DNA of 56,205 nucleotides from Bryobacterales bacterium (GTDB taxonomy: Bacteria; Acidobacteriota; Terriglobia; Bryobacterales; Bryobacteraceae). Both the position numbers and the translations under genes were made by a program. The stretch covers positions 1-56,205 of the forward strand of contig JADLBG010000642.1 in assembly GCA_020847895.1 (NCBI GenBank), given 5' to 3'. Shown here piece after piece: positions 37,756-54,599 of this stretch (its first letter is position 1; every line of letters starts with the position of its first letter). Under the pieces are notes generated by a model. That model saw nothing but the letters and a program-made list of their open reading frames with translations. It was not told the origin of the DNA and did not search any database.

Positions 37756-39501
37756 ATGAACGAATTCAAAATTCGCAGTGCAGCACTGGAGCCGTCCACC
37801 TTCGACGCGGAGAACCGCACCGTGTCGGTGGTGTTCGCCTCGAACGCGCCCGTCCGCAGGACGGATCTCGACGGCGCTTACCAGGAGCGGCTCGACATGA
37901 CGCAGGCCGCCGTGGATCTCTCGGAATTAATCGGCGGCCCCGTCCTCAACTCCCACAACCGTTCCGACGTGAACGCTGTGTTGGGCGTGGTGGAGTCCGC
38001 CCAGGTTGACGGCGAACGCGGCACCGCCACTATCCGCTTCAGCGAACGCGCCACGGCGGTGATGAATGACGTGCGCCAGGGCATCCTGCGCAAGCTGTCG
38101 GTGGGCTACGTGATCAACCAGCGCCGCGCCGAGAAGGATTCCACCAAGGGCATGCGCACGATTACCGCGACCCGCTGGACCCCGAAAGAAATCTCCTTCG
38201 TCGCCATCCCCGCGGACTCGGCGGCGAAGGTCAGAGGAGAAATGATGGACCACACCAACGAGAACGAAATCCGGGTGATCGCCCAGATCGCCGGCCTCCA
38301 GGCCGACGACATGATCGCCCGCAACCTGACCCTGGACCAGGCGCGCGCCGAAGCGTTCGAAGCCATAAAGCGCCGCTCCGGTTCTCCGATCCGTACGGCG
38401 CAGCCGATCTCGCTCGCCGCGGGCTACGACGACCCGGTATTCCTGCGCACCGCCATGGCGGACGCCATCTACACGAGGATTAACCCGGTGCACAAGCCCG
38501 GCGATGCGGCCCGGCCCTTCGTCGGGCGCAGCATGGTGCGGTTGGCGGAAGAGGTGCTGCGGTTGCGCGGCATCGAAATCATCGGCCTGTCCGACGGGGC
38601 GATTGTGGACCGCGCCCTCCACAGCACGAGCGATTTCCCCCTGCTGCTCGGCGACGTAGCGAACATGGTGCTGCAGGAGCAGATGTCCGCCGCGCCCGCA
38701 GCGATCAAACAGATCTGTCGCCAGACCACGATCCCGGACTTCCGCAACCGTTACTCGATCCAGTTGGGGCAGGCGCCCACGCTGATGAAGGTGAACGAGA
38801 ACGGCGAGTTCAAATCCGGCACCATCGCCGAAGGCCGCGAGTCGTACAAGCTGGACACCTACGGCCGGATCTTCGGCGTCAATCGGCAGGCCATCGTTAA
38901 CGACAACCTCTCGGCGTTCTCCGACATCGGCCGGTTGTTCGCTTCCGCCTCCGCGCAGTTTGAGGCGCAGTTCCTCGTGGACCTGATCACCGGCAACAAC
39001 GGCGTCGGGCCCGTCATGTCGGACAACAAGAAGTTGTTCGACGCCGCGCACAGCAACCTCGCTGCGAGCGGCGGCGCCATCTCCGACACCACGCTGGCTG
39101 CCGCGCGCCTGGCTCTCCGGTCGCAGAAGGGGCTGGACGGCAAGACCCCGCTCGACATCGCGGCCAAGTTCCTGGTGGTGCCCGCCGCCCTGGAAAGCAC
39201 CGCCGAGAAGTACCTCGCCAGCATCTACCCGGCGCAGGCCGCGAACGTAAACCCGTTCGCCGGCAAGTTGACCCTGGTCGTTGATCCGCGGCTCGACGCC
39301 AAGTCGGCCACCCGCTGGTACGTCGCCGCCGATCCCGTTTTGTTCCCGAGCATCGAGTACGCCTACCTCGCCGGTAACGAAGGCGTGCAGGTCGAGACGC
39401 GGGCCGGCTTCGAAGTTGACGGCGTGCAGATCCGTGCCCGTCTCGACTTCGGCGCGGGTGCCCTCGACTTCCGTGGCGTGTATGCCAACCCCGGAGCGTA
39501 G
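37756..39501 (+). CDS. prohead protease - major capsid protein fusion
   Basis: The N-terminal about 150 aa resemble HK97/U35-type prohead proteases. The C-terminal about 300 aa resemble Mu gpT-like major head proteins (SYKLDTYGRIFGVNRQAIVNDNLSAF). Confidence 0.7.
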   Translation: MNEFKIRSAALEPSTFDAENRTVSVVFASNAPVRRTDLDGAYQERLDMTQAAVDLSELIGGPVLNSHNRSDVNAVLGVVESAQVDGERGTATIRFSERATAVMNDVRQGILRKLSVGYVINQRRAEKDSTKGMRTITATRWTPKEISFVAIPADSAAKVRGEMMDHTNENEIRVIAQIAGLQADDMIARNLTLDQARAEAFEAIKRRSGSPIRTAQPISLAAGYDDPVFLRTAMADAIYTRINPVHKPGDAARPFVGRSMVRLAEEVLRLRGIEIIGLSDGAIVDRALHSTSDFPLLLGDVANMVLQEQMSAAPAAIKQICRQTTIPDFRNRYSIQLGQAPTLMKVNENGEFKSGTIAEGRESYKLDTYGRIFGVNRQAIVNDNLSAFSDIGRLFASASAQFEAQFLVDLITGNNGVGPVMSDNKKLFDAAHSNLAASGGAISDTTLAAARLALRSQKGLDGKTPLDIAAKFLVVPAALESTAEKYLASIYPAQAANVNPFAGKLTLVVDPRLDAKSATRWYVAADPVLFPSIEYAYLAGNEGVQVETRAGFEVDGVQIRARLDFGAGALDFRGVYANPGA

Positions 39502-40103: not shown

Positions 40104-40340
40104 TTGGCCAGAACACTTCGAGGGGACATGATCGACACGAAAGACCTGACGCCGGTGATGACGCTGAAGCAGGCCGCCGCCTACTTGCAGATCTCGAAGG
40201 CGCACCTGTCCAACGTGATTAACGGCAAGGTCGAAGACGTGCCGCCGCTCCGCTGCTTCCGGGTCGGGCGGCGCATCCTGATCAGGCGCGAATGGGTCGA
40301 GGAGTGGATGGAATCCGCCAACCTGGAGGCGATCCGGTAA
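40104..40340 (+). CDS. excisionase/AlpA-like HTH DNA-binding protein
   Basis: LKQAAAYLQISKAHLSNVING...FRVGRRILIRREWVEEW. Sits immediately upstream of the integrase gene. Confidence 0.6.
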   Translation: MARTLRGDMIDTKDLTPVMTLKQAAAYLQISKAHLSNVINGKVEDVPPLRCFRVGRRILIRREWVEEWMESANLEAIR

Positions 40341-40399
40341 TGGTAGTATTCGGGTCGTGCCAAGAGTTAACGCCTTCGACGCAGGAAAGAGGCAAGAAA

Positions 40400-41548
40400 G
40401 TGCGTCGAAAGCGTTTCCAGAAGGGCAGCCTGCAGCCGCGCAAACATGGGCGGCATCGCGTGTGGGTTGCCTCCTGGTGGGAAGACGGCAGCCGCCGGTC
40501 CAAGGTGCTCGGGTTGTGCTCGAAGATGACGAAGGGAGAGGCGGAGTCCGCAATGGCGACGATTCTCCAGCCGATCAACGAGGGCACGTCACGCGGGCCC
40601 AGGCCGGTGTACACGTTCGAGCAGTTCACGAAGGATGTGTACCTGCCGTTTTGCCGCCGCAGTTGGAAGGAATCAACCGCAGGTACGTCGGAGCAGATCG
40701 TCCAGAAGCATCTCGTCCCCGAGTTCGGGCAGGATTTGCTCCACACCATTCGCAGGGATCAATTGCAGGATTTCCTCGACCGGAAGGCCACGGAGTTGTC
40801 GTTCAGCGTGGTGGCCCATCTGCGGTGGTTCCTCAACGGCATCTTCAAATTGGCGTTATCGGACTCCATCATTTCGGGGAATCCGGCGGCCGAGTTGAAG
40901 GTCCCGAAGAAGTGCCAGCCCGGACGTGCGATGCGTCCGCTCACAGAAGAGGAGGTAAACACGTACCTGGAGGCGTTCGGCCTCCGGGAGAAGTTGATCG
41001 CAAGGCTCGCGATCTTCGAAGGCATGCGGCCGGGCGAGATCCTGGCCCTCCGATGGAAGTCGGTGGACGGCGAGATCATCCGGGTGGAGGAACGCGTCTA
41101 CAAGCGGAAGTTCAACACGCCGAAGAACGGCAAGACCCGCGAAGGCGCGATCTCCGACGGCACACTCGAGCTGTTGAGGCAGTGGGCCGATCTGGCGCAG
41201 GACCCGAGTCCGGATGGATTCTTGTTTCCGTCCGAGAAGGTCACGACGCCCATTTCACTCGACAACATCTGGCGGCGGAACATGTGTCCGGTGCTGGAGA
41301 AGATCGGGATGGAGTGGGCCACCTTTCAGGTGTTGCGCAAGACCAACGCCAGCCTGTCGAAGAAGGCGGGTGTCGATCCCAAGGTCGCCTCGGACCAGAG
41401 GGGCCACGGACTCGGCGTCAGCCTGGAGGTCTACACCAGCTCCGACCTGGAGCAGAAACGAGCCGCACTTCGGGCCCTCGAAGCCGCCGTACGGCGGAAG
41501 AGGAAGCCCAAACAGAAACAGCCGTCAGAATTGGCGAAGTCGGCTTAA
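40400..41548 (+). CDS. tyrosine-type site-specific integrase
   Basis: GTG 40400 (AGGAAAGAGG upstream) gives VRRKRFQKGSL. Catalytic-domain signatures are GMRPGEILALRW, LRKT, RGHGL...LEVYT. Confidence 0.9.
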   Translation: MRRKRFQKGSLQPRKHGRHRVWVASWWEDGSRRSKVLGLCSKMTKGEAESAMATILQPINEGTSRGPRPVYTFEQFTKDVYLPFCRRSWKESTAGTSEQIVQKHLVPEFGQDLLHTIRRDQLQDFLDRKATELSFSVVAHLRWFLNGIFKLALSDSIISGNPAAELKVPKKCQPGRAMRPLTEEEVNTYLEAFGLREKLIARLAIFEGMRPGEILALRWKSVDGEIIRVEERVYKRKFNTPKNGKTREGAISDGTLELLRQWADLAQDPSPDGFLFPSEKVTTPISLDNIWRRNMCPVLEKIGMEWATFQVLRKTNASLSKKAGVDPKVASDQRGHGLGVSLEVYTSSDLEQKRAALRALEAAVRRKRKPKQKQPSELAKSA

Positions 41549-41902: not shown

Positions 41903-43255
41903 CTACGGTACCCTCGAAAAGCCGTATTCATAAACCCTGCCCGATGCTGTGATGATTTCAATATCCTCCAGAGCCGAGATCGATCCCGATGCGAGTTCCA
42001 GGGCCACACCACCGTGGAGCCGACGAAGTAACTCCGAGATCCCCAATACGCCAGCAATCAAACCGACAAACGGCACGCCAACAGTCCGTGAAGCCAGTTG
42101 CGTGATACCGCATCTGTCCAGACCAGGGAGTCTCGATGGTGTATAAGCGGGCGTGTCAGGCAGGTCTGCCGGATTGGCTGCCGACCACAGCTTTTCGGCG
42201 CGCAATGAACCAGGGAAAGTGTGGAGCGAAAAGTTCTTGAAGCTCTGTGGCCCAGATCCAAGCCCTGTTTCCACAATCAAACCAAACCCTGCCTGTTCTA
42301 GAGATGCGCGAGCTAACGCGTTGTCTACGCCGCAGAGCGCTACCGCTGGGTCATGTGGGCCGCGTCGTGACCAGGTCCCAAAAGGCTTCTCGTCCAAGAT
42401 CGTCCGAAACCCTCGCCGCTCGGACCATTTGGCCATAGCTCGTGCTTTCTTCTTGCCAACAATGTCGGGTGACGTCAGGACCGAGGTGCTGTCGTTCGCC
42501 ACCGCAACACGGTCGTGATCCTGCAGTACCAGTGTTAACTCCCGCGCGCCCCGATACGGGAGTGCGCCAAGAATCCATAGGTAGGCTTGTCCGAGGTTAC
42601 CCAGACCGATCAGCCAAAGAGCATTCGGGAGTAATTCGATTTTCGGCTCGCTTGGATCATCAAACAGCCAGTCGTTTCCGGGCTGCCAGAGGGACATGCC
42701 GGAAGATCGTCTACCGGCCAGGGCATGATCTCCAGAATGATAGAGAAACGCCTCAGCGGCGCAGGCGCAGGCGGCCAACACAGGGGCCAGCCCGGCAGCA
42801 TTTCGTTCCTCAAGCCTTTGCTCCTCGCGGATTGGAGTTACCCCGCCCCGCCAACCACTCCAAGTAAGCCTCCATCCCGTCTTTGAATTCTCCGTGACGG
42901 TCCCGATGCAGGCTACCGGGAACCCCTCACTTATCTCCGAGCAGCGCCCGCCAAGTTGACTGACCGCCTCCCCGAGAGTGTCCGCTTCCGCGACCGGAAT
43001 CATAAGTGGCGTGTCCAGGGAGCCCTCGACCGTGACTCCTCCGAGAAGGGTTCTACGGGTCACATTCACCAGCGTCAGCAAAGCAAGTTGATGGTCCCGT
43101 GATGTCCTCACTTCATCACCAACTCGAATCGAGAGACCATACTGTCGCAACATCCCTACGGCCTCTTGATGGCTCGTCGCTCGACCAGTATCCATAAAAT
43201 ACTTAGCTGTTCGATGGAGAGTGTCAGGTGTGACGCTAGCCCCAGAATCCAACAT
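41903..43255 (-). CDS. bilD: E1-like (ThiF/UBA-type) ubiquitin-activating enzyme homologue
   Basis: Rossmann motif LIGLGNLGQAYLW within a ThiF-like region. Last gene of the Ubl-E2-JAB-E1 operon; overlaps the JAB gene by 20 nt. Confidence 0.75.
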   Translation of the reverse strand: MLDSGASVTPDTLHRTAKYFMDTGRATSHQEAVGMLRQYGLSIRVGDEVRTSRDHQLALLTLVNVTRRTLLGGVTVEGSLDTPLMIPVAEADTLGEAVSQLGGRCSEISEGFPVACIGTVTENSKTGWRLTWSGWRGGVTPIREEQRLEERNAAGLAPVLAACACAAEAFLYHSGDHALAGRRSSGMSLWQPGNDWLFDDPSEPKIELLPNALWLIGLGNLGQAYLWILGALPYRGARELTLVLQDHDRVAVANDSTSVLTSPDIVGKKKARAMAKWSERRGFRTILDEKPFGTWSRRGPHDPAVALCGVDNALARASLEQAGFGLIVETGLGSGPQSFKNFSLHTFPGSLRAEKLWSAANPADLPDTPAYTPSRLPGLDRCGITQLASRTVGVPFVGLIAGVLGISELLRRLHGGVALELASGSISALEDIEIITASGRVYEYGFSRVP

Positions 43256-43757
43256 AAAAATACCTCCTCGTTAGCGGACCACTGAAATTGATCCACTCGT
43301 GACCACCGCGATATTCATAGATGCCAAGGCCGTTGTCCTCTGTCGGGAAACGGGCAAAATTCGGAACGATGATCGCAACGTGCCCAGGTGTCGCCACCAT
43401 GGGATTAGTACGATCGGAATAACTCTGAACTGCTGCCCCAGGATGAGTGTGAATGTCGGCAACAACAGAGAGTCCCCGTTCTCGACATATCTTCCAAAGC
43501 TTCGCAAAGGCGTCTCCATGGAGGATACATACGCCGGAGTTATAGGCACTCGGATCTAAGTCGTCGTAGAAGACCCTCTCAGTAATTTCGAGTCGCTGAG
43601 ATCTTTTCTTGCCAAGCAAGAACGCCCCAGCCTCGTGCCACCATTCACCCCGTTGCTGAAGTTCGTTCAGGAGCTGGAACCAGAACGACTTGGAACAGCT
43701 TATTCGATGTTCACGCGCAAGCAGCGCCCGTATAGTCGCTCGAATTGAGGAGATCAT
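43236..43757 (-). CDS. bilC: JAB/MPN (JAMM) metallopeptidase
   Basis: EAGAFLLG upstream Glu and the JAMM motif [17 protein letters not shown] (HxH-x7-S-xx-D). Confidence 0.85.
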
Positions 43758-44196
43758 AGATTTGCTCCAAGTAAGAAATCAGCCCTCGTGAAACATCCCA
43801 GAGCCTCCCTGGATGCTCGTGGTTCCAGTTGCTGTGCCCTTCAATCGCCATGCGATCACATGGCAGATAGAGGCACTGTGCTCCCTTCCACTCAGGCCGA
43901 AATATGGAGGGAATGATCGTCTTGCCCTTTGGCCAGCGGTGCGGTGGCAGTGGACGGTCCGTAGTGAGGTCCCAAGGCTGAGCTGTTGCCGCCATTTGGC
44001 GATATCCCGTGCACTCGAATCGCAATCCTACCTCGCGGACCGATTGGCCCCGCTCAGCCGTTGAGACTGCGATGACCACGTAAGGCCAGATCGTCCTGAC
44101 CAAACGCCAGCGACCTTCGATTTCGCCGAGCCTGAACTGGGGTGATTTCAAGTCTTCGGCAAGGAGTATTGAATCGGGCGAGGCCACACTCTGCAT
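43711..44196 (-). CDS. bilB: E2-like ubiquitin-conjugating enzyme homologue
   Basis: Start set at MQSVASPD (TGAtATG junction with the Ubl gene). Candidate catalytic Cys in LYLPCDR, preceded by a proline-rich loop. Position is between the Ubl and JAB genes. Confidence 0.55.
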
Positions 44197-44197
44197 A

Positions 44198-44689
44198 TCA
44201 GCCCTCAACTCGCTTTTCAGGAACCAAGTCGAAACAAACATCGCAGCCGCAGTTCCTAAGGAGCGTGCTCAGCGGGGTGTCGCTCGATGGCCTTTCCTTC
44301 GAGTCACAGACCTGAAGAATGTGTTCCGGAGCATCCTTGGAGTCGATGTGAAACTCTCTGGTCGCCCATTGCTTGATTGTTCGGACTCTCGTTCCTGGAG
44401 CGAACTTGCGCTCAGCCGTTTTCTCCAAGTAGTGCACTCGAACTTCGATCCGTTTGCAGTGATTTAGATGAATCCTGCACCCGTGTTTCAAGCCTTTATG
44501 TTCCTCTTCGCAGTCCTTCATGACCTCGTTATCTTCTTCATCAATGAAGATCCGCAGATTCTCGTCATCGAGAAGACCAGTGGTCAGGAGGGCAGCATAG
44601 AGGGCCGCTCCAGTGCGTCCGGCAGGAAGCGGTAGCTCGACGATTCGGGCATCTCGTCCGATGTGAACGAAAATAAATTCGGTGGGCAT
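44198..44689 (-). CDS. bilA: tandem beta-grasp ubiquitin-like protein ending in a free C-terminal Gly
   Basis: 163 aa (ISG15-like size). Two beta-grasp-sized halves. The sequence ends ...LVPEKRVEG-stop. Confidence 0.6.
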
Positions 44690-44794
44690 TGAACTCTCCT
44701 TGTGAACTTGCGCCCAAAACGGCGCTCTACTTGGTTCAACCGGGAGAGTCTGAAAACCGGAAATCGCAGAAGGACGATTTCAGTGCCGAGCTGG

Positions 44795-47700
44795 TTAAGC
44801 TCCTTCGCTGGAAGGGTTGTGAGCAGGACAGATGAAGAAGAATGGACATCGCGGGCATTCGCGATCGCTCCGCACAGGATGGAATCGGCCCTCGCGTATC
44901 CCTGTGATAGCTTCACCAAGCTTGCCGGTTTCGTTTGCGAGCTTCTTGGCGGACGCAGTCGAATCGCGGCGATCCCTAGTCAGGAGGGACACGTGGTGGA
45001 ACTCAACCTTGCGCCCCGGGTACTTCCTCTGGACAGCTTCTTGAATGGCAAAATATCGGAGCTTCCCCGATTCATCCTTGGCGAGGCTGGTCAGTTTCAG
45101 CCTATGAACCTCGATGGCAGTTGATAGCTGTCCGACATGGTCTGCCCGGCATGTCACGATGACATCGGTGCCCTGCACTGTCACCGTGAGCTCCAGGTCC
45201 AATGGGAGGGCTGTTCCGGTAATCAAGTCCGAAGCGTTTTCAGCTATCCGTTCAGCCGCTGCTCGGTAAATCTCCTCCATTGGATGACCAATCAAACGTC
45301 GATTCGCCCAATCGCCTTCAAGCTGCTTTGCCCGCCCGGCATCACGATCTGCTTTTGAAGGTGTCGATTGCATCCACGTAATCGTCCCCCGAATCGTACG
45401 ATGGAGATCCAGATAGGGTGTAGTCCTTCCTCCGCCATCAAGGTTTACGACGGCCTCATAGTAAAACCGCCGAGGACAGCTTAAGTAGGTTTCAAGTTCC
45501 GCGACTGACCACTTGTCTCGCTCGCTTGGTGGCCGAAAACGAACGCTTTCAGGCTCAGAGAGCCGGGACTTCGTCCAGTTCGGCTGGCCGTCCGGGGGCC
45601 TCGAAAGGTGATTTCCGATCTGGACCAAAAAGTCTGACGGTCCAACGCTCTTCCACGCACCTCCGCCGTAGGCCACTGCTCGCGAAAGATGCAGTTCGTT
45701 CATCGCCCGCGAGATCGCAACGAAGAAGAGACTCTCCTCCTCTGCCGCCCTCGACATCAGGGCATCTTCGTCTACGAGACCAGGAGGGAGGGTGTTCGGG
45801 TCTTCCCGGTTGTAGGGAAAATGGCGAGCGCTCAGCCAGGGTATGTGCACAATCGGAAACTGAAGCCCTTTGCTCGCATGTACCGTCATCATTCGCACAG
45901 CATCCAACCCAGCGGCTGCCGCCGGAAGCTGTCGCAGTTGCTTCTCCTCGTCTAGGATCTCCAAACGCCGGATGTGTTCGAGGAGGGCCTTCTTAGGGTC
46001 CTGCTTGTGTCCACTACGGAACGCAAATGCGAACTGCAAAAGCTGGTAGATGGCCAGTCGTTTTTGCTGACCTCCGACTGATCTGTCTTCGAAAATCTCC
46101 TTGAGAAAGGATTCATCTCGGAACATGAATCGGAGCAGAAAAGCGTGCGCCCGTGTCGCAAAACTAACCGGCCCCAAGTCTGACTTGAGGCGCTCTAGAC
46201 TAACCCTGGCTGAGGTCGAGATTGGCACTTCATCCAGCCTCCCGAGCGCAGCCAGCATGGTCACGTCATTCGTTCTCCGCCATTCACTCAACGCCTGAAG
46301 ATCCTCGATGGCGATCCGGTACTGGGGAAGCTGCGTAATGCGAAACATCCCAAGTCCCTGCTTCTCCGAGACGACTGACAGGAGCGAGAGAACTTCGCGA
46401 ATCTCGGCACGTTCGAAGAAGTCGCCAAAGTACAGACACGGTATCCCACTACTTTCGAGGTGCCTCGCAAGACGAACGAGGGAGCCGTGCGATCTGGCAA
46501 GAATCGTATGCCTTCCATAGCTGCCACCACGCTCTACGTCCGCCCGAATCTTCGCTGCAACGCCTTCGCACTCCGCCTCGACCGTACTAGCGATGTCGAG
46601 TTCCACGCTGCCGATAGACTCACCCCGCTGAGCTTCGAGTTTCACAGCTGAACCCAGCACCCGTGTAGTCATCGAACGTTCGAAGGTCTGAAAGGTGCGT
46701 ACGATGCGACCACCCGACCTGTAGTTCACACCGAGATCAGTCCCACTCGCTCCAGGGAAGTCGTCGGCGAAACGAGCCATGTTGAGCGGCGATCCGCCCC
46801 GAAACCGATAAATCGCCTGCTTAACATCGCCTACTACCCATGGACCCATACCTGGCTCAACCAAATCACGGAGGAAGAAGCCGCTGGCTCGATTCATGTC
46901 CTGGTACTCATCCACCAAAACATGCTTACGCTCCGCACGGACAAGGGCTCGTACATCAGGCTTTGCCCTCAGCAGTTCCACCGGGCGGGCGATGAGATCG
47001 CCGAAATCGACGAGCCCTTTGGCGTGCTTCGCGGCCTCGTAGACCTTGAATGCGCGTGCTACCTCAATCGCAGCTCGCCGGTCTGTTTCATCATCAATAC
47101 GAGTTGCGGCCTCATGATATTGCTCCGGCGTCACGAGTTCATCTTTTGCCCGCGATATCAACGCGAAGACGGTTCGCAGCTTTGCGACTGGTTCATAGAG
47201 GTCTAGATAGTGATCGAGTCCAATCTGGCCAGCAAGTTGCTCCAAAAGATCAAGCGAGCTGCTACGGTCAATGAGTCTCGGTTCGGGAAGCTCAATCTCA
47301 CTACCGTGCTTTCGCAACAGCTCAAGTCCAAACGCATGAAATGTCCCCACCCAGATACCAGCGGCCTTTTCCCGAAGCTCGGCCCGAATGCGCTTCGCCA
47401 AATCCTGAGCCGCAAAATTAGAGAACGTGAGAACAAGAATGGCACTCGGGTCCTCGCCATTCTGGATCAGCCATTTCACCCGACCGACTAGCGTGCGAGT
47501 CTTGCCCGTGCCGGGACCGGCTCCGACCCTAAATGGTACTCGCCCAGCCGTGATCGCTTTTACCTGAGTCGGATCAGGCTCAGGCTCTGGCTCCGAGCTT
47601 CTCGCTTCAACAGGTTCTTCAGGAAGGAGGAGAGCATCTGCGAGTTGTTGCAGAACGAGGTCGAGCGGCACCCCTACCACTCCCGCAATCTCCTCTGCAT

Positions 47701-48166
47701 TGAAGCTGCCACCCGAACTCAGCGCCCGAAGTTTTTCCCGAGGGAGAAGAAATTCTCTCGCGTACAAGTTTGCTTGGGCTTCGGCCCGTTCCTTGGGGCT
47801 ATAGGCATCAGATTCACCAACGAGTGACATCTCCGGTTCGGCTGGAGTGCCAAGGTCCAAATCGGACGAATCGCACTTGATCAGAACTTCGTCGAGCCAG
47901 AAGTGCGCATACTCATGCGCCACGTGAAATGCTGCTAACCGAGGATCGGTGACATTCGAATACAGGATCTTTTTCAGTTCGCGATCTAGCGCAGCCTCTG
48001 CGCCGTCAAGAAGCGCGTCACTAGCAGCACAGGCTTCACTTACGATCCCAGTCGTCTGGGCAGCGGCCATCAACAGTTCGCTCGCCGGCACGATTGCCGT
48101 GGCATCCGCACACAGCGAATAGTGCCTTAAGCGTGCCTGCTCTCGAACCTCTGCCCAGATGCTCAT
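44795..48166 (-). CDS. fusion protein: ImmA/IrrE-type metallopeptidase + UvrD/Rep SF1 helicase + C-terminal Cas4/AddB-like PD-(D/E)xK nuclease with a Cys cluster
   Basis: HEYAHFWL (HExxH) and AQANLYAREFLLP. Walker A GAGPGTGKT, DEYQD, VNYRSG, TVHASKGLQFP. C-terminus has YLSCPRRFYY ... CPRCPFFFICP. Confidence 0.85.
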   Translation of the reverse strand: MSIWAEVREQARLRHYSLCADATAIVPASELLMAAAQTTGIVSEACAASDALLDGAEAALDRELKKILYSNVTDPRLAAFHVAHEYAHFWLDEVLIKCDSSDLDLGTPAEPEMSLVGESDAYSPKERAEAQANLYAREFLLPREKLRALSSGGSFNAEEIAGVVGVPLDLVLQQLADALLLPEEPVEARSSEPEPEPDPTQVKAITAGRVPFRVGAGPGTGKTRTLVGRVKWLIQNGEDPSAILVLTFSNFAAQDLAKRIRAELREKAAGIWVGTFHAFGLELLRKHGSEIELPEPRLIDRSSSLDLLEQLAGQIGLDHYLDLYEPVAKLRTVFALISRAKDELVTPEQYHEAATRIDDETDRRAAIEVARAFKVYEAAKHAKGLVDFGDLIARPVELLRAKPDVRALVRAERKHVLVDEYQDMNRASGFFLRDLVEPGMGPWVVGDVKQAIYRFRGGSPLNMARFADDFPGASGTDLGVNYRSGGRIVRTFQTFERSMTTRVLGSAVKLEAQRGESIGSVELDIASTVEAECEGVAAKIRADVERGGSYGRHTILARSHGSLVRLARHLESSGIPCLYFGDFFERAEIREVLSLLSVVSEKQGLGMFRITQLPQYRIAIEDLQALSEWRRTNDVTMLAALGRLDEVPISTSARVSLERLKSDLGPVSFATRAHAFLLRFMFRDESFLKEIFEDRSVGGQQKRLAIYQLLQFAFAFRSGHKQDPKKALLEHIRRLEILDEEKQLRQLPAAAAGLDAVRMMTVHASKGLQFPIVHIPWLSARHFPYNREDPNTLPPGLVDEDALMSRAAEEESLFFVAISRAMNELHLSRAVAYGGGAWKSVGPSDFLVQIGNHLSRPPDGQPNWTKSRLSEPESVRFRPPSERDKWSVAELETYLSCPRRFYYEAVVNLDGGGRTTPYLDLHRTIRGTITWMQSTPSKADRDAGRAKQLEGDWANRRLIGHPMEEIYRAAAERIAENASDLITGTALPLDLELTVTVQGTDVIVTCRADHVGQLSTAIEVHRLKLTSLAKDESGKLRYFAIQEAVQRKYPGRKVEFHHVSLLTRDRRDSTASAKKLANETGKLGEAITGIREGRFHPVRSDRECPRCPFFFICPAHNPSSEGA

Positions 48167-48792
48167 TTGCTACTCCGCTTTTCATTCTCGACAATCCTAA
48201 TCCAGTAAGCCTTATCTTCATCTGAAAGCGTAGAGTTCCGAACGGCATCCAAGAAAGTTTCGGTGGTGGGCAACGGCCTCTGTTTTGCCTTGAATTGTGC
48301 GGCTGCATTACGTAGCGGCGGACCACCAGCTATCATGCTGCGAACTGCTTCTGCGGGAGCCTCAAGCTGCTCTCCCAGCACTTCGAAGAGATGGCCAGGC
48401 AACTCAGTTAGCCTTCTCAAATCAAGCTTCTTCACGAACTTCAAATCGAGTCGGACGTTGGCGGCCATCTTTTCGGCACTTATTCCGACTGCGGCGATTG
48501 CTTTCAGCAAGGTCCTCGCAGTGTCCCTCTTGGTAGGCTGAGGATTCTTTTCCCGTCGGTGTAGGATGTCGAGCGCGTGACTGACCGCAAGATTGGATAA
48601 ACGTTCAGCATCAATCTCCGGTTCCTCTAACCGTTCCGCCTGAATTGCCCACTGCGCAAAGAACTCCGACAGCTCCTGCTTGAATTGCGGATACTGTTCA
48701 ATCCAACGTGTCAACGCACGGTAGTTCGGCTCTGATTCCTCCAGCATGAGGGAATCTAGGATGTAATCAAAATCAACTGGCTGAGTATTCAT
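48163..48792 (-). CDS. hypothetical protein, possible HTH partner
   Basis: 209 aa. ATGA overlaps at both ends. The central LLKAIAAVGISAEKMAANVRLDLKFVKKL segment is HTH-like. Confidence 0.4.
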   Translation of the reverse strand: MNTQPVDFDYILDSLMLEESEPNYRALTRWIEQYPQFKQELSEFFAQWAIQAERLEEPEIDAERLSNLAVSHALDILHRREKNPQPTKRDTARTLLKAIAAVGISAEKMAANVRLDLKFVKKLDLRRLTELPGHLFEVLGEQLEAPAEAVRSMIAGGPPLRNAAAQFKAKQRPLPTTETFLDAVRNSTLSDEDKAYWIRIVENEKRSSK

Positions 48793-49628
48793 AGCTGCAC
48801 CCCAAGCGCTGTTCGTATGCTTTCAAGCCCTTTCATGATCCAATTTCTAATCTGGCGCGGTGAGACACCAAATCTCGTAGCTAGAGTCGGAACGTCGGCG
48901 TTCTCCGACTCGATAGGCCAGTCATGTCCATAGCGAAGCAGCAAGGCTTCAAAATGGCGGGGATCCTTTACGGCTGCGCGAGCCTTGTCGAGCATCTCCC
49001 GGCGGCTCGCCAAACTATCCAAGCGAAGCAACTCTTCAAGACCATTCAGCCTCAGGTCGGGAAGGTCGGACTCTTGCGTCGTAACACCGGTCGATAGGGA
49101 GACAGGCCGCAGGCGTTGAGCCTTCGCGACGAGTTTGATCGTCCTGCGTTTCACCGCTTCTGAAAACGCAACTTCTAGAAAATCACTCCCAAGCGAAGGC
49201 TGCTCCGCGAGGACAAATTCGATAATGTCCCGCTGAATCGTCTCTATGATTCTGTCCGCTTCGACCTGGCTGAAACCTCTCGCCCAACGAAGAACAACGG
49301 ACTGGACTCTCTTGCTTAACTCGAAGATCAGGTCCCCAGCCGTGTTACGGTCGTACCGCGCGACATACCGGATGAGATGGATAAGTACTTCGGCTGGAAG
49401 ATCCTTCTTCGCTTCCTGAACCCATCGCGTAGGATCGTCGCGGAATACGGATGCGATCCGCTCCTCAATATCTCGCCGCCTCACGTACACCTTGCCGTTC
49501 GGACGGAGGACCGTTAGCGGCGGAACATGGTACGCCCTGGCGGCACCGGGTGATGTCGGCAATAGGCTCATACTCTTTTCAACCGGCGGCCAGCCAATTC
49601 CGGAAGTCTTTCGTAAAGAAATTTTCAA
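48789..49628 (-). CDS. sigma-70/ECF-like factor homologue
   Basis: Region-4-like PTLATRFGVSPRQIRNWIMKGLESIR and a region-2-like helical block. Alternative start at MSLLPTS. Confidence 0.45.
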   Translation of the reverse strand: MKISLRKTSGIGWPPVEKSMSLLPTSPGAARAYHVPPLTVLRPNGKVYVRRRDIEERIASVFRDDPTRWVQEAKKDLPAEVLIHLIRYVARYDRNTAGDLIFELSKRVQSVVLRWARGFSQVEADRIIETIQRDIIEFVLAEQPSLGSDFLEVAFSEAVKRRTIKLVAKAQRLRPVSLSTGVTTQESDLPDLRLNGLEELLRLDSLASRREMLDKARAAVKDPRHFEALLLRYGHDWPIESENADVPTLATRFGVSPRQIRNWIMKGLESIRTALGVQL

Positions 49629-49767
49629 TCGAACGTTTCAGAAGACGCAAATGGCTTCCTTCCAATAGGTTAGCTCCGAGCGGATTCTGCCACTACTCTC
49701 CCGCCGGTGGCAGCGAAACAGGCACGACGCGAAAAGGGGGCAACGCTGCCGCAACCCATATGGGTAT

Positions 49768-49783
49768 TTACCCACATACCCAC
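49768..49783. repeat. iteron TTACCCACATACCCAC (copy 1 of 3 perfect copies)
   Basis: Identical 16-mers at 51269-51284 and 51548-51563. The adjacent palindrome is ACCCATATGGGT. Confidence 0.7.
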
Positions 49784-49800
49784 ATGGGGAGACATGCTTG

Positions 49801-50280
49801 CTACTTCACTCTGCGCGGCGCGTTTCCATTGATGTCGAACGCACGGAAGATGAGCTGGCCCACTTGGGCTTCGTACTCGCGGAACGCCTCTACATCTCCA
49901 TTCGAAGGTCGCTCAAGCCCAGCAAGTTTTTGTGCTGCTCGGAGAAATTCCGTCTTCTGCGCGAGGGCGGCAAGGAGGAGCCCTCGGTTGAAGATGCTGA
50001 ACTGAATATTGTGCCCGACGATGTCCGCTATGTCGCGAAGCATGTCGGTGATCTCCCGTTTCTCGTCGTATTCGAGGAGAGTCTTCAGATGGGCTAGCTT
50101 CTTTTTCCGGCTATCAATCGGACGCTTCACAGGTGGAATTGGAAGCTCCGTTACAGGGAGACTCGGTTGAGGCCTCTCCACGGGAGGTGGCTCTGGAAAG
50201 CGGGTTATTGCACCGCGCTGAAGGGTGCTCGTGAGATCAACCTTCGAAACTGCGTTCGAACGAAAACTTGGTTTTGACAT
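49801..50280 (-). CDS. hypothetical protein downstream of parA (possible centromere-binding partner)
   Basis: Lies 12 nt downstream of parA on the same strand. Pro-rich N-terminus, helical C-terminus. Assigned by position only. Confidence 0.35.
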   Translation of the reverse strand: MSKPSFRSNAVSKVDLTSTLQRGAITRFPEPPPVERPQPSLPVTELPIPPVKRPIDSRKKKLAHLKTLLEYDEKREITDMLRDIADIVGHNIQFSIFNRGLLLAALAQKTEFLRAAQKLAGLERPSNGDVEAFREYEAQVGQLIFRAFDINGNAPRRVK

Positions 50281-50291
50281 ACTCCCCTCCC

Positions 50292-51206
50292 CTACTCGTT
50301 CGCCGCACGTTTCTGTTCATCTGCTTGGCCGCGCGTCATGCCGAAGAGCGATTCGAAGTTCTTCAGCCGAGTCTCGATTTCCTCAGCCAGTGCTTCATAC
50401 TCGGCACAGGCGCGTGAATTCGCGCGATAGTCGAAAATGGTCTGCGCCGCGTACGGTGCCTCTTCTATCGCGATCGTCTTGCTGATGTGGTTTTGAAATC
50501 CGAGCTTGACCGTCTTCTTGTTTTCGAGAGTCGCCCGGAACTCTTCGTCTACAAACTGGACGATGTCCTTTGAGAGTCTCGTCCGGACATCAACCTCAGT
50601 GAGCACCACTCCTAAGAGCCGTCCCTCCGCACCAAATTGTTTCACTTGTAGAAGATCCTGAACCGCATCCGAAAGGGAGTCCATCGCGGTCTTCCCAGGA
50701 CGCGCTGTGAGGATGAACCAGGGGACGGTGTTGTAGGCGATAACGGTGGGTGTGGTCAGATTCGGCGCAGTGTCGACGAACACGTAATCGAAGGATGAGC
50801 GAAGGTCGGCAAGCGCTCGGGCAAAATTCTTTTCCGGTCGGATACTCGGACGCTGCGCAATGACTTGATCCAGGCTCTCAAGGCTTCGGCTCGCCGGTAT
50901 TATGGCAAATCGCTCGGGGAGATGAACGACAGCCTCGGTGCCGTTCAACAGGGTCTGGAACTCGGCCTTTATAATGCACTCACTGGCCTCGGCCTCTCCC
51001 GTGAAGATGTCGAACGTGGAGCGGAATGCTTCCTCAGGAACGGAGAACGTACGAGTCAGGCCGCGGTTGTTATCAACGTCGACAAGGCAAACCGACCTGC
51101 CCTTTCGCGCGAGGGCGGCGGCGACGTTGATCGTCGTGGTCGTTTTCCCGACACCCCCTTTTTGGTTCCCGAAGGCGATGAGCCTTCCGAGTGCTGGTCT
51201 GGCCAT
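50292..51206 (-). CDS. parA: ParA/Soj-family partition ATPase
   Basis: Deviant Walker A GNQKGGVGKTTT. DVDNNRGLT; VFVDTAPN. Confidence 0.9.
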   Translation of the reverse strand: MARPALGRLIAFGNQKGGVGKTTTTINVAAALARKGRSVCLVDVDNNRGLTRTFSVPEEAFRSTFDIFTGEAEASECIIKAEFQTLLNGTEAVVHLPERFAIIPASRSLESLDQVIAQRPSIRPEKNFARALADLRSSFDYVFVDTAPNLTTPTVIAYNTVPWFILTARPGKTAMDSLSDAVQDLLQVKQFGAEGRLLGVVLTEVDVRTRLSKDIVQFVDEEFRATLENKKTVKLGFQNHISKTIAIEEAPYAAQTIFDYRANSRACAEYEALAEEIETRLKNFESLFGMTRGQADEQKRAANE

Positions 51207-51244: not shown

Positions 51245-51590
51245 GCGCCCAGATGGGTTCATACCAACTTACCCACATACCCACCGTCGTTCGCCGGAGG
51301 ATGAGAGAACCGCGGAACTCTCGCAACGGGGAATCTTCTGAAGGCCAGGAGAACGTGGCATTTGACCCATATACCCATCTGGGTATCGAACCATGTGGGC
51401 AACACTTGCCGAAAGTCACCGCGATTCACTTTGCCCATGTGGGTTTGTGGGTACTATCCCTTCTTCCCTCTTACCCACTTTCCTTCCAGGGAGACCTCGC
51501 GCAGCGATGCAACCGTTCGTGAGCACTGGCTTGTCCTATATACCCTGTTACCCACATACCCACTGGCCCACCATCCCATATACCCATCAG
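51245..51590. repeat. iteron-rich non-coding region between parA and the Rep-like gene
   Basis: Perfect TTACCCACATACCCAC at 51269 and 51548. Variants: ACCCATATACCCATCTGGGTAT (51365-51386), inverted CCCATGTGGGTTTGTGGGTA (51434-51453), TTACCCAC (51471), CCCATATACCCAT (about 51574). Confidence 0.7.
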
Positions 51591-53273: not shown

Positions 53274-54599
53274 ATGGCCAAAGATCTAGATCCGAAGAAC
53301 ACCGTCCCCGAGCTGCAAGTCGAGCGTAAGGCGACCGATATTTTCGTTGGAAACAAAGTTTTTCCCGAGGCTTCAGCCGTCTTCACATCGAGATCTCAGA
53401 CTCTAACCGAAGTTTTGAAGACGGCATGTATCGTCCTGGATACCAATGCTCTTCTCGTCCCATATGGCATCGGAGCACAAACGCTGGCGCAAGTTGAGGC
53501 CACCTACAAAGGTTTGTTGAATGAGAAGCGTCTCGTGATACCGGCGCAAGTGGCACGGGAGTTTGCTCGAAACCGCGTTACGAAGCTCTCGGAGCTTCAT
53601 CAACGGCTGTCCCGTCGACGGTCGCAATTGCAACCGTTTCAACAAGGGAATTATCCGCTGCTGGAGGCCGTACCGGAATACGAGAACCTCAGGGAAACTG
53701 AAGATCAACTTGACGCTTTGATCTCGAAGTACCGCCAACAGTTGGGTTCTGTGATCGACCATTTGGCAGCGTGGGAGTGGAATGATCCCGTCAGCGTTCT
53801 CTACAACCGGCTCTTTCCCGCTGAGGCTGTATTCGATACGTCGAAGCCCCTGGAAGACATTCGTCAGGAACATGTTCGACGATTCAGCAGTAAGATTCCA
53901 CCGGGTTATAAAGATAACGCTAAAGACGACGAAGGAATTGGCGACCTCCTGATTTGGATGACGATCCTTGAGGTAGGATCGCATCGAAAAACGAGTGTCA
54001 TTTTCGTTTCAGGTGAGGAGAAATCTGACTGGTGGCATCGAAGCGAAAACCAGCATCTCTACCCCAGATATGAACTTGTTGATGAATTTCGCCGGGCGTC
54101 TACCGGACATTCATTCCACATCATCAAGTTTTCTCGATTGCTGGAACTGTTCGGTGCTAGCACTACGGTAGTTGCGGAGATACGGAAGGAAGAAGAAATT
54201 GCTTCACCAGAAATCCCGTTGACGCGGCACAGCGCAGCGCACTTGCGCTCCATCGAAGCAGAACGTGCCGTAGCGTCTTGGCTGATGCAACTAGGTTTCG
54301 AGGTCTCACCGGCCACAAGTCCCTATCGATATGATTACGTCGTAGAAGGTAACGGGACAGTGTTTGCAGTAGACGTAATGTCCATACGCAACCCCTTGGT
54401 TCTCCAACAACGTTTTAAGGAACTAAGCCGAAGACAGCGAGAGGCGTCGGACCTTCCTCTTACCGTAGTTGCAGTTGGCGAGTCGGTGGACGACGTGCAT
54501 CGAGCTGAAACAGTTTGGTCTAAATTAGATCCACCGTTTCGACTATGCGCTGGTATTCTTACAGCTTCAGGCAGCTTCACCGCGCTGCGGCCGCTCTAA
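53274..54599 (+). CDS. PIN-like (DUF4935-type) domain protein with an extra C-terminal domain (possibly endonuclease-like)
   Basis: CIVLDTNALLVPYG...LVIPAQVAREFARNR...GIGDLLIWMTILE...VIFVSGEEKSDWW. The C-terminal about 120 aa (ERAVASWLMQLGFEV...YDYVVEG...FAVDVMS) is only weakly PD-(D/E)xK-like. Confidence 0.6.
   Translation: MAKDLDPKNTVPELQVERKATDIFVGNKVFPEASAVFTSRSQTLTEVLKTACIVLDTNALLVPYGIGAQTLAQVEATYKGLLNEKRLVIPAQVAREFARNRVTKLSELHQRLSRRRSQLQPFQQGNYPLLEAVPEYENLRETEDQLDALISKYRQQLGSVIDHLAAWEWNDPVSVLYNRLFPAEAVFDTSKPLEDIRQEHVRRFSSKIPPGYKDNAKDDEGIGDLLIWMTILEVGSHRKTSVIFVSGEEKSDWWHRSENQHLYPRYELVDEFRRASTGHSFHIIKFSRLLELFGASTTVVAEIRKEEEIASPEIPLTRHSAAHLRSIEAERAVASWLMQLGFEVSPATSPYRYDYVVEGNGTVFAVDVMSIRNPLVLQQRFKELSRRQREASDLPLTVVAVGESVDDVHRAETVWSKLDPPFRLCAGILTASGSFTALRPL

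Follow-up and report, generated by a model that had tools for sequence, protein, structure and literature searches.

The 56,205-nucleotide (nt) contig JADLBG010000642.1 of a Bryobacterales bacterium (assembly GCA_020847895.1), referred to here in its full length as the window, carries on its minus strand three open reading frames (ORFs) at 48789-49628, 48163-48792 and 44795-48166, which we named in this order gene A (sigma-like), gene B (encoding a protein of 209 residues) and gene C (encoding a peptidase-helicase fusion). The A/B and B/C junctions read CTATGAAT and AAATGAGC, and the ATGA stop/start overlaps at 48789-48792 and 48163-48166, by which an earlier note on this DNA had held the three genes to be coupled, can be read directly in the sequence. 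As that note had also observed, gene C ends 105 nt ahead of a gene for a ubiquitin-like (Ubl) protein on the same strand, and this gene is bilA. The four genes that follow C, all on the minus strand, were identified by PADLOC (expectation values (E) of 4e-46 to 7e-160) as a complete Bil system in the order Ubl, E2, JAB and E1: bilA (44198-44689; E 3.5e-46), whose ubiquitin-like product has the C-terminus ...VEG, the E2-like bilB (43711-44241; DUF7665; PADLOC E 2e-61, Pfam PF24702 E 3.5e-58), the JAB deubiquitinase-like bilC (43236-43757; PADLOC E 2.8e-65, also matched by Pfam Prok-JAB), and the E1-like bilD of the ThiF family (41903-43255; E 7e-160).

For gene A the earlier note had taken a TTG start at 49628, which gives 279 residues. 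We depart from it here, because homologues share an N-terminus that begins MSLLP at ATG 49571 and because a conserved promoter-like motif falls inside the 279-residue reading; gene A most likely starts at this ATG, spans 48789-49571 and encodes 260 residues. Gene A has been annotated at just 162 residues in two related loci, one from Escherichia coli (L168) and one from Klebsiella (L004), versus an ORF of 260 residues that matches the A family.

The 1123-residue product of gene C is composed of three parts. Its N-terminal domain (residues 1-185; 47612-48166, minus strand) is a CapP/IrrE-like M78 zinc peptidase, Peptidase_M78 (PF06114) matching residues 64-175 at 31.8 bits versus a cut-off of 22. 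The central part (residues 199-850; 45617-47572, minus strand) is a superfamily 1 (SF1) A helicase motor of the UvrD/PcrA type, matched by UvrD-helicase, AAA_19 and UvrD_C (PF00580 at E 9e-58, PF13361 at E 2e-28), and the C-terminal domain (residues 885-1114; 44825-45514, minus strand) has an AdnA/AddB/Cas4-like RecB fold matched by PDDEXK_1 (PF12705, E 1e-9). Residue conservation was assessed over 67 non-identical members of the family. All 67 retain the HEYAH sequence, the EAQANLYAREFLLP motif and the C897...C1104-x2-C1107-x5-C1113 cluster found in the window protein, including H84, E85 and H88 of HExxH, the third ligand E129, and each of the four cysteines, of iron-sulfur (Fe-S) type, that flank the RecB fold. 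The helicase motifs, namely Walker A (GPGTGKT), DEYQD and the residues of the later motifs, are invariant or nearly so across the same set, and the motor is thus SF1 UvrD-like with intact ATPase motifs.

The best match in the PDB for a profile of the first 200 residues of C was CapP (7t5t, E 1.5e-4), followed by IrrE; a single-sequence PDB search with the same 200 residues returned no match, CapP being reached by the profile only. The alignment to CapP spans the HExxH motif, the E..AQA.LFA..LLP segment, which carries the third zinc ligand Glu129 (Lau et al.), and CapP Cys113, which Lau et al. name as the 'cysteine switch', capping the zinc while the enzyme is inactive. Residue C98 of the window protein aligns to this cysteine and is a candidate cysteine switch of the C peptidase. 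An equivalent of C98 is found in 31 of the 67 homologues, comprising the whole main clade linked to Bil operons, and is absent in the clade linked to operons of the Bub type.

The RecB-like domain is a different matter. The RecB nuclease motifs D...(D/E)xK are not kept in C, where motif III reads R-x-K/R: the (D/E) position is occupied by arginine (R1022) in 50 of 67 sequences and by D or E in none, the lysine position is R in 38 and K in 14, and the upstream aspartate D1009 is retained in only 47. With a C-terminal profile the best PDB match was mycobacterial AdnA, a weak one (E 0.04-0.09), and in this weak alignment the family arginine falls on the aspartate of AdnA VVVDLKTGK. One deposited AdnA entry reads VVVALKTGK, which we take tentatively to be a nuclease-dead variant. 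As the (D/E)xK motif is degenerate while the four-cysteine cluster is kept, the nuclease domain is probably inactive, and we predict an Fe-S-type module that binds DNA and DNA ends and does not cut them. Of what the earlier note had seen in this protein, the ImmA/IrrE peptidase, the complete SF1 UvrD helicase and the C...CxxC-x5-C cluster all hold, whereas the nuclease is probably inactive, the R-x-K/R form being family-wide. The protein also drew many PADLOC matches to GajB and DRT models (GajB at E 2e-56), which cover the generic UvrD helicase core only. Because these models match the helicase part alone and PADLOC found no GajA-like protein among the neighbours, C was rejected as a Gabija GajB. 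A scan of the locus proteins with NCBIfam gave helicase and sigma matches only, all sub-threshold.

The AlphaFold model of protein A, built from a 40-sequence alignment, has a predicted local distance difference test (pLDDT) value of 85 and consists of two helical domains and a disordered linker. When this model was searched against the PDB with Foldseek, ranks 1-23 were all sigma factors, mostly of the extracytoplasmic function (ECF) type, and included sigmaE-RseA (1or7), SigH holoenzymes, AlgU-MucA and RpoE-NepR (probability at most 0.99, E 0.016); an E value this modest would be expected from a flexible two-domain protein. At the sequence level the window protein gives at most weak helix-turn-helix (HTH) or sigma-region-4 hints in Pfam and PADLOC. 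Among its 40 homologues, Sigma70_r4 is matched at E<=0.01 in 11 (best 2e-7), the A-equivalent gene of one divergent clade matches Sigma70_r4_2 at E 4e-12, and depositors have annotated homologues as sigma-24 or sigma-factor-like. In agreement with the earlier note, the protein thus looks sigma-like in the fold search and in part of its family.

Protein B has a more modest model (pLDDT 72) that is laid out as an N-terminal helical domain, an XRE-like HTH core (approximately residues 95-155) and a C-terminal helical tail, with disordered linkers between them that were predicted at low confidence (residues 79-92 and 157-173). The N-terminal helical domain is well predicted and rich in invariant aromatic residues. 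In agreement with the HTH-like label that it had been given beforehand, the best Foldseek matches of the core were mostly XRE-family HTH proteins (ClgR, C.BclI, SinR, lambda cI and DdrO; probability approximately 1). Neither Pfam nor PADLOC holds a family for B, and a PDB profile search with it returned nothing significant. A profile search of 1.84 billion cluster representatives (50% clustering) nevertheless recovered 1108 representatives of the B family at E<=1e-3, with the full-length matches being mostly of about 200-230 residues among the 150 matches listed. With this many representatives and no Pfam or PADLOC family, B appears as a sizeable family that has no name. We regard it as a candidate inhibitor of A and a candidate substrate of the peptidase.

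To place these genes in a wider setting, 98 related loci were collected, comprising 7 annotated plasmids, 11 genomes and 80 metagenome contigs. The metagenome contigs were found with the N-terminal peptidase domain alone as query; in a genome-contig scan with the full-length C alignment the patterns were helicase motifs and were swamped by ordinary UvrD genes, only 11 of 80 being true fusions. In all 18 of the plasmid and genome loci the hidden Markov models of A and B matched the two ORFs that directly precede the fusion, the three genes running A-B-C on a single strand, and over the 78 loci whose upstream sequence extends to 1.7 kb or more both A and B were present upstream of C in 64. The 14 others belong mostly to divergent clades, one of which keeps a Sigma70_r4_2 ORF at this place. 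A lack of conserved linkage between the three genes, which the earlier note had named as grounds for abandoning its proposal, was thus not what the neighbourhood survey found.

The linkage extends to what lies downstream. Among the 61 loci in which the sequence continues for 1.5 kb or more beyond C, 30 have BilABCD there and 26 have a Bub-type operon (Multi_ubiq with or without Prok-E2_E, ThiF with or without JAB, and DUF6527); one has a hybrid operon, one an IS66 insertion with a Bub gene further on, and three no Ubl operon. A Bil or Bub operon therefore directly follows C in 56 of the 61, fixed in position and orientation and within about 40-140 nt. The cassette runs in the same direction as the Ubl operon and upstream of it, both in the window and in every related locus examined. 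The linkage was found in Alpha- and Gammaproteobacteria, Chloroflexi, Verrucomicrobia and planctomycete-like metagenome contigs. The association of A-B-C with Ubl operons is far beyond chance, and a chance meeting within defence islands, which was considered as its cause, is ruled out by the fixed position and spacing.

The three loci that have no Ubl operon belong to a divergent clade with other partner genes. In this M78-UvrD-4Cys clade (L128, L129, L134 and L145, and also L122 and L158) a 360-386-residue ORF of no known family replaces A and B, a divergently transcribed 345-residue ORF with a weak TauD-like match is present, and there is no Ubl operon; the sensor protein is the same here but seems to be connected to a different partner. 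As a separate observation, pairs resembling SbcCD (an SbcD-like/exonuclease gene and a gene for a large AAA/SMC-family ATPase) lie beside the cassette-Ubl unit in three loci (L002, 1952-6165; L006, 1786-5963; L007, 15286-19091), and an ORF pair comparable to these in size (426 and 1168 residues) has the same position in L014 (16398-21121). Such a pair may be a further recurrent neighbour of the cassette.

Viewed from the Bil side the association is looser. The fusion adjoins a BilD homologue in approximately 9 of 37 BilD-bearing plasmids, and the other 28 or so lack the cassette. Other regulators are known from the same slot: CapH+CapP occurs at 25 of 162 Bil operons (Chambers preprint), and published surveys of the slot upstream of 544 Bub operons count CapH+CapP at 168, CapW at 43 and CapK+CapS at 59. 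Ubl operons can thus do without the cassette, whereas the cassette hardly ever lacks a Ubl operon beside it, as one would expect if A-B-C were an accessory but dedicated control module.

The earlier note had left two options side by side, a regulator of the Bil-type operon and a stand-alone defence or anti-plasmid module. In the latter, C would attack foreign DNA under the control of its own sigma-like and HTH-like proteins and would be near Bil merely because both reside in a defence island. The GajB matches of C, to models of the UvrD type, would be in keeping with such a module, as would a low-GC island beside a prophage-like region and a nearby PIN_8 gene. However, the GajB matches are to the generic helicase part with no GajA present, the (D/E)xK motif is gone family-wide, the Ubl operon keeps its position, orientation and spacing in 56 of 61 loci, and the motif described below stands before both operons. 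With the cassette almost never found apart from a Ubl operon and its nuclease motif degenerate, we disfavour this option as highly improbable; of the two it is the regulator that the downstream counts and the shared motif favour.

This motif is a bipartite element that was found by aligning the short gaps between C and the Ubl operon in related loci. In the window it takes the form TTCCGG-N14-CGGTTGAA, which has exactly 2 matches in the 56,205 bases when both strands are searched (0.00 expected from 100 shuffles), and both copies are on the minus strand, one before gene A (P_A, 49578-49605) and the other in the gap between gene C and bilA (P_ubl, 44735-44762). P_ubl lies 45 nt before the bilA ATG, and the 3' end of P_A is only 6 nt before the ATG of gene A, so that the mRNA of A would be near-leaderless; the position of P_A (-34 from the start) is the same in the closest homologous loci (L089, L093, L094, L096 and L098). 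For the related loci we used the strict pattern T[TA]CCG[GA]-N14-17-[CG]G[AG]T[TC][AG], which is matched in the C-to-Ubl gap of 48 out of 72 loci. A second site lies upstream of A in 22 loci and inside A, about 212 nt before B, in 34, with one or the other being present in 52 of 68, and elsewhere the pattern was matched 57 times in 2.53 million scanned positions. The two sites of one locus also resemble each other, since the -35 variant (TT or TA) agrees in 40 of 41 unique pairs, the spacer length in 37 and the -10 variant in 28.

For the Bub-linked clade it is the coding sequence of A that contains the second copy, which there encodes (Y/F)R-x5-AI (L003-L005, L007, L010-L014, L016, L017 and L110-L165). 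All sequences of this clade that were inspected, which span several bacterial groups, use only TAC/TTC, CGG/CGA, GCG and ATT here, and this freezing of synonymous codons points to selection on the DNA itself. The embedded copy looks like an internal promoter for B-C, situated within the gene of the very factor that would read it.

The motif is asymmetric, lies without exception on the coding strand, has a -35/-10-like geometry with a 14-17 nt spacer, and is placed 35-120 nt ahead of start codons. The simplest reading would be that A is a specialised sigma factor to which each locus offers a pair of promoters, one driving all or part of the cassette and the other the Ubl operon. The motif could instead be taken for an operator, with A being an HTH activator or repressor and the Bil genes depending on read-through or on a housekeeping promoter under the influence of A or B. 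A scan for sigma-70-type promoters and intrinsic terminators predicted neither between C and bilA, and this result divides: with no terminator, read-through would be possible, whereas a housekeeping promoter has no predicted counterpart nearby. The sub-threshold sequence-level assignments of A to the sigma factors agree with an operator; the asymmetry, the restriction to the coding strand, the promoter-like geometry and the distance from the start codons do not, and the fold search with A returned sigma factors rather than one-domain HTH regulators. We judge an operator of this kind to be improbable, and a dimeric operator in particular is ruled out by the asymmetry and strand specificity of the motif.

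Just 3' of the -10-like element of P_ubl we read from the sequence a leader stem-loop, GCGCC-GTTTTG-GGCGC (44710-44725, minus strand). A stem-loop is predicted at the same place in most related loci, with z < -1.5 in 29 of the 46 unique leaders scored, and its sequence varies among loci L001-L166; for the window's own 55-nt leader the fold does not exceed that of shuffled sequence (z -0.1). The outer stem of the hairpin pairs with the ribosome-binding site in several Bub-linked loci (e.g. CCTTAGAG...CTCTAAGG), a hint of translational control or of mRNA stabilisation.

Taken with the gene linkage, the domain content and the conserved catalytic residues, the paired motif makes it likely that the A-B-C cassette controls transcription of the downstream Ubl operon. 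A full chain of events, in which A-B-C is a dedicated transcriptional switch for the Bil operon that is triggered by DNA by way of the peptidase, can be laid out with less assurance, and we favour it by a small measure only. Protein A would act as an ECF-type alternative sigma factor that reads the promoters before its own operon and before bilA (-35 TTCCGG and -10 CGGTTG in the clade of the window). Protein B, produced in fixed proportion to A owing to the ATGA coupling, would keep A silent, either by anti-sigma sequestration or by means of an XRE-like HTH sitting on the promoters. B is the sole candidate for this role because an autoregulated sigma factor needs an inhibitor, and B is coupled to A, resembles other substrates of M78 peptidases in its XRE-like core and possesses an extra conserved domain, which could hold A. 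Protein C would be the sensor, its UvrD-type motor and degenerate four-cysteine RecB-like domain engaging abnormal DNA such as free ends or single strands that arise from damage or from phage or plasmid entry. This engagement would release the cysteine-switched, CapP-like M78 peptidase domain, which would then cleave B within a disordered linker, and the freed A would drive a burst of A-B-C and BilABCD expression.

Several points weigh against this chain. The sigma activity of A, its inhibition by B, the cleavage of B by C and the DNA trigger are steps that we infer. The TIGR02937 match of A in NCBIfam is sub-threshold (16 bits versus a cut-off of 42.9), a PDB profile search with A returned nothing significant, and its alignment, when compared by hhalign with E. 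coli sigmaE, was collinear but non-significant. The HTH of B is visible by Foldseek alone (E 0.045), and no anti-sigma fold or family was found for B by Pfam, Foldseek or PDB profile. As for the motif, 24 of 72 loci have no match to the strict pattern at the position of P_ubl. In a neighbour-joining tree of C, moreover, the Bub-linked proteins form one clade nested in Bil-linked lineages, with a single Bil-linked exception inside it, from which it follows that swaps between Bil and Bub are rare and that part of the co-occurrence of cassette and Ubl operon is shared descent. Lastly, the tie to Ubl operons is near-exclusive, whereas CapH/CapP, CapW and CapK/CapS serve many types of system, and this could mean a partnership at the level of the proteins rather than pure regulation.

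Such a partnership deserves to be set out in its own right. In it C, with A and B as its regulators, would work together with the Ubl machinery itself, as a DNA-bound platform or sensor or as a target of conjugation. The near-exclusive occurrence with two different Ubl operon types (56 of 61 loci), set beside immune regulators that are known to serve many system types, would fit, and the invariant helicase motifs place the motor under strong selection. Yet about 28 of 37 plasmid-borne BilD loci have no cassette, and Bil cloned as four genes under an inducible promoter protects E. coli (Millman preprint), by which C is no core component; the shared promoter motif, for its part, already accounts for the linkage. 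We therefore think a protein-level partnership unlikely, if worth keeping in mind, and return to the transcriptional switch in what follows.

Among the closest known parallels to such a switch is the CBASS-associated CapH+CapP pair. CapP is held inactive by a cysteine-switch loop, and binding of single-stranded DNA opens the enzyme, which then cleaves the HTH repressor CapH; IrrE/DdrO and ImmA/ImmR follow the same principle. The cassette shares with CapH+CapP an M78 domain whose closest solved relative is CapP itself, with the same zinc ligands and a cysteine aligned to the cysteine switch, a pairing of this peptidase with a small adjacent protein (B) that looks HTH-like by fold search, and a location upstream of immune operons of the same kinds, Bil and Bub. 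However, CapP is built of a peptidase, an HTH-like linker plus a GAF domain at the C-terminus (Lau et al.), and C departs from this architecture in having a UvrD helicase and a four-cysteine RecB-like domain in place of the linker and GAF domain, with no GAF match in Pfam. The cassette further differs in its constant third, sigma-like gene and in B, which unlike CapH carries an additional N-terminal domain that is conserved and which gives no HTH match in Pfam. The arrangement differs as well, since capH and capP at Bil operons are reported to be divergent from the operon and to share its promoter region (Chambers preprint), while the cassette is co-directional with the operon that it would regulate. 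IrrE/DdrO of Deinococcus and ImmA/ImmR of ICEBs1 and prophages similarly have an HExxH M78 peptidase which, in a manner linked to DNA damage, cleaves an XRE-type regulator, and both members of the former pair came up in the searches, IrrE as the second-best PDB match of the C peptidase and DdrO among the fold matches of B. Unlike the cassette, these pairs relieve repression with neither a dedicated sigma factor nor a helicase fusion, and what they control is repair genes or the excision of an element rather than Ubl-conjugation operons.

Two further families are resembled in part. With ECF pairs of the sigmaE-RseA type the cassette has in common the predicted two-domain, sigma-like fold of A, the coupling of the sigma gene to a small partner gene, and an own operon and a target operon preceded by the same -35/-10 motif, which is a layout for positive autoregulation. 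Unlike in these pairs, the presumed protease is a DNA-linked cytoplasmic product of the operon itself, B is without a recognised anti-sigma domain, and A is too diverged to pass curated sigma models. Typical ECF sigma promoters are GGAAC/CGT, and the cassette consensus of -35 TTCCGG and -10 CGATT(A/G) is different. Like AdnAB, AddAB and RecBCD, protein C has an SF1 UvrD-like motor followed by a RecB fold with the four-cysteine cluster of AddB, AdnA and Cas4, and AdnA is the best PDB match of its C-terminal domain. In contrast to these enzymes C is a single polypeptide that has no partner subunit, has R-x-K/R in place of (D/E)xK and bears an N-terminal peptidase, and it is encoded in a mobile-island context rather than at a housekeeping repair locus. 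The cassette would work like CapH/CapP, the ECF pairs and AdnAB but is a member of none, because it shows neither the GAF domain nor the divergent layout of the first, no recognised anti-sigma domain as in the second, and neither the (D/E)xK motif nor the partner subunit of the third. CapW/BrxR and CapK+CapS, which regulate Bil, Bub and CBASS in response to DNA damage, have only the slot directly upstream of Bil and Bub operons in common with it, being a WYL repressor and a GHKL kinase with a STAS-wHTH repressor, respectively, which are unrelated proteins and de-repression systems that do not employ a sigma factor.

The earlier note had not recognised the system as a named one, and this stands: PADLOC has no model for A or B, and no description was found in the literature searched. 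A helicase- or sigma-containing cassette is not described in the Bil, Bub, CapH/CapP and CapK/CapS papers or in full-text searches, to which subscription journals were mostly closed. Whether the cassette represents a fourth class of regulator for bacterial Ubl immune operons, distinct in mechanism and the first to rely on a sigma factor, with a CapP-like peptidase built into a helicase controlling a private sigma factor through proteolysis of its coupled inhibitor, is in our estimation an evenly balanced question. Were it so, the helicase of C would make or track its own DNA signal for the cysteine-switched peptidase.

The surroundings of the locus suggest that it is mobile. In the window the cassette and Bil unit lie in a low-GC stretch (0.55 versus 0.63), with the drop occurring around 41000, and just beyond bilD are an ORF for a prohead-protease/capsid fusion (37756-39501) and a tyrosine integrase gene (40292-41548). 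As the capsid and integrase genes adjoin the unit and the GC content falls there, the unit either marks the edge of a prophage-like region or occupies an island of its own. A tRNA scan of the 56-kb window found none, and a scan of IMG/VR for relatives likewise returned none. On the other side of the cassette, repeats of TACCCACA / TGTGGGTA phased at 8 nt (49755-49785 and 51248-51581) flank a parA-like ATPase gene and a 159-residue ORF of no family (genes at 49801-50280 and 50292-51206 on the minus strand). Such an arrangement resembles a partition locus whose iterons are centromere-like, and suggests a plasmid or an integrative element as the island's origin. The same low-GC stretch encodes a PIN_8-domain protein of 441 residues (53274-54599, plus strand; E 9e-39), possibly another defence or toxin gene.

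Rhizobial conjugative plasmids carry homologous units, as do many Acinetobacter plasmids, some of them from clinical isolates. The Klebsiella pneumoniae IncHI5-type plasmid pKP19-2581 (L004) bears the cassette and a Bub operon beside a Tn7-like element. In E. coli the combination of cassette and Bub operon was found in 1 of 5,426 complete genomes, that of CP61_Sichuan (L168; NZ_CP053730.1, 1335701-1342605), where it is flanked by IS1 and IS4.

What these findings mean for the biology of bacterial Ubl conjugation follows from the position of the cassette. Bil systems have been characterised from inducible rather than native promoters, and according to the Bub literature the biological role of Bub operons is still unknown. 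A conserved switch with a predicted promoter offers a direct handle on when Ubl operons are used and on the signal that they answer. The cassette is also common, the B family alone having 1108 representatives, and its presence on clinical Acinetobacter and Klebsiella plasmids and on one E. coli chromosome makes it experimentally accessible. If the proposed mechanism is true, the ImmA/IrrE/CapP theme would gain a member that is coupled to a helicase and based on a sigma factor, and the cassette hints at a way for a DNA motor to gate a protease. That the cassette is tied almost exclusively to Bil and Bub operons, finally, may mean that its helicase signals a DNA event peculiar to whatever it is that Ubl conjugation defends against.

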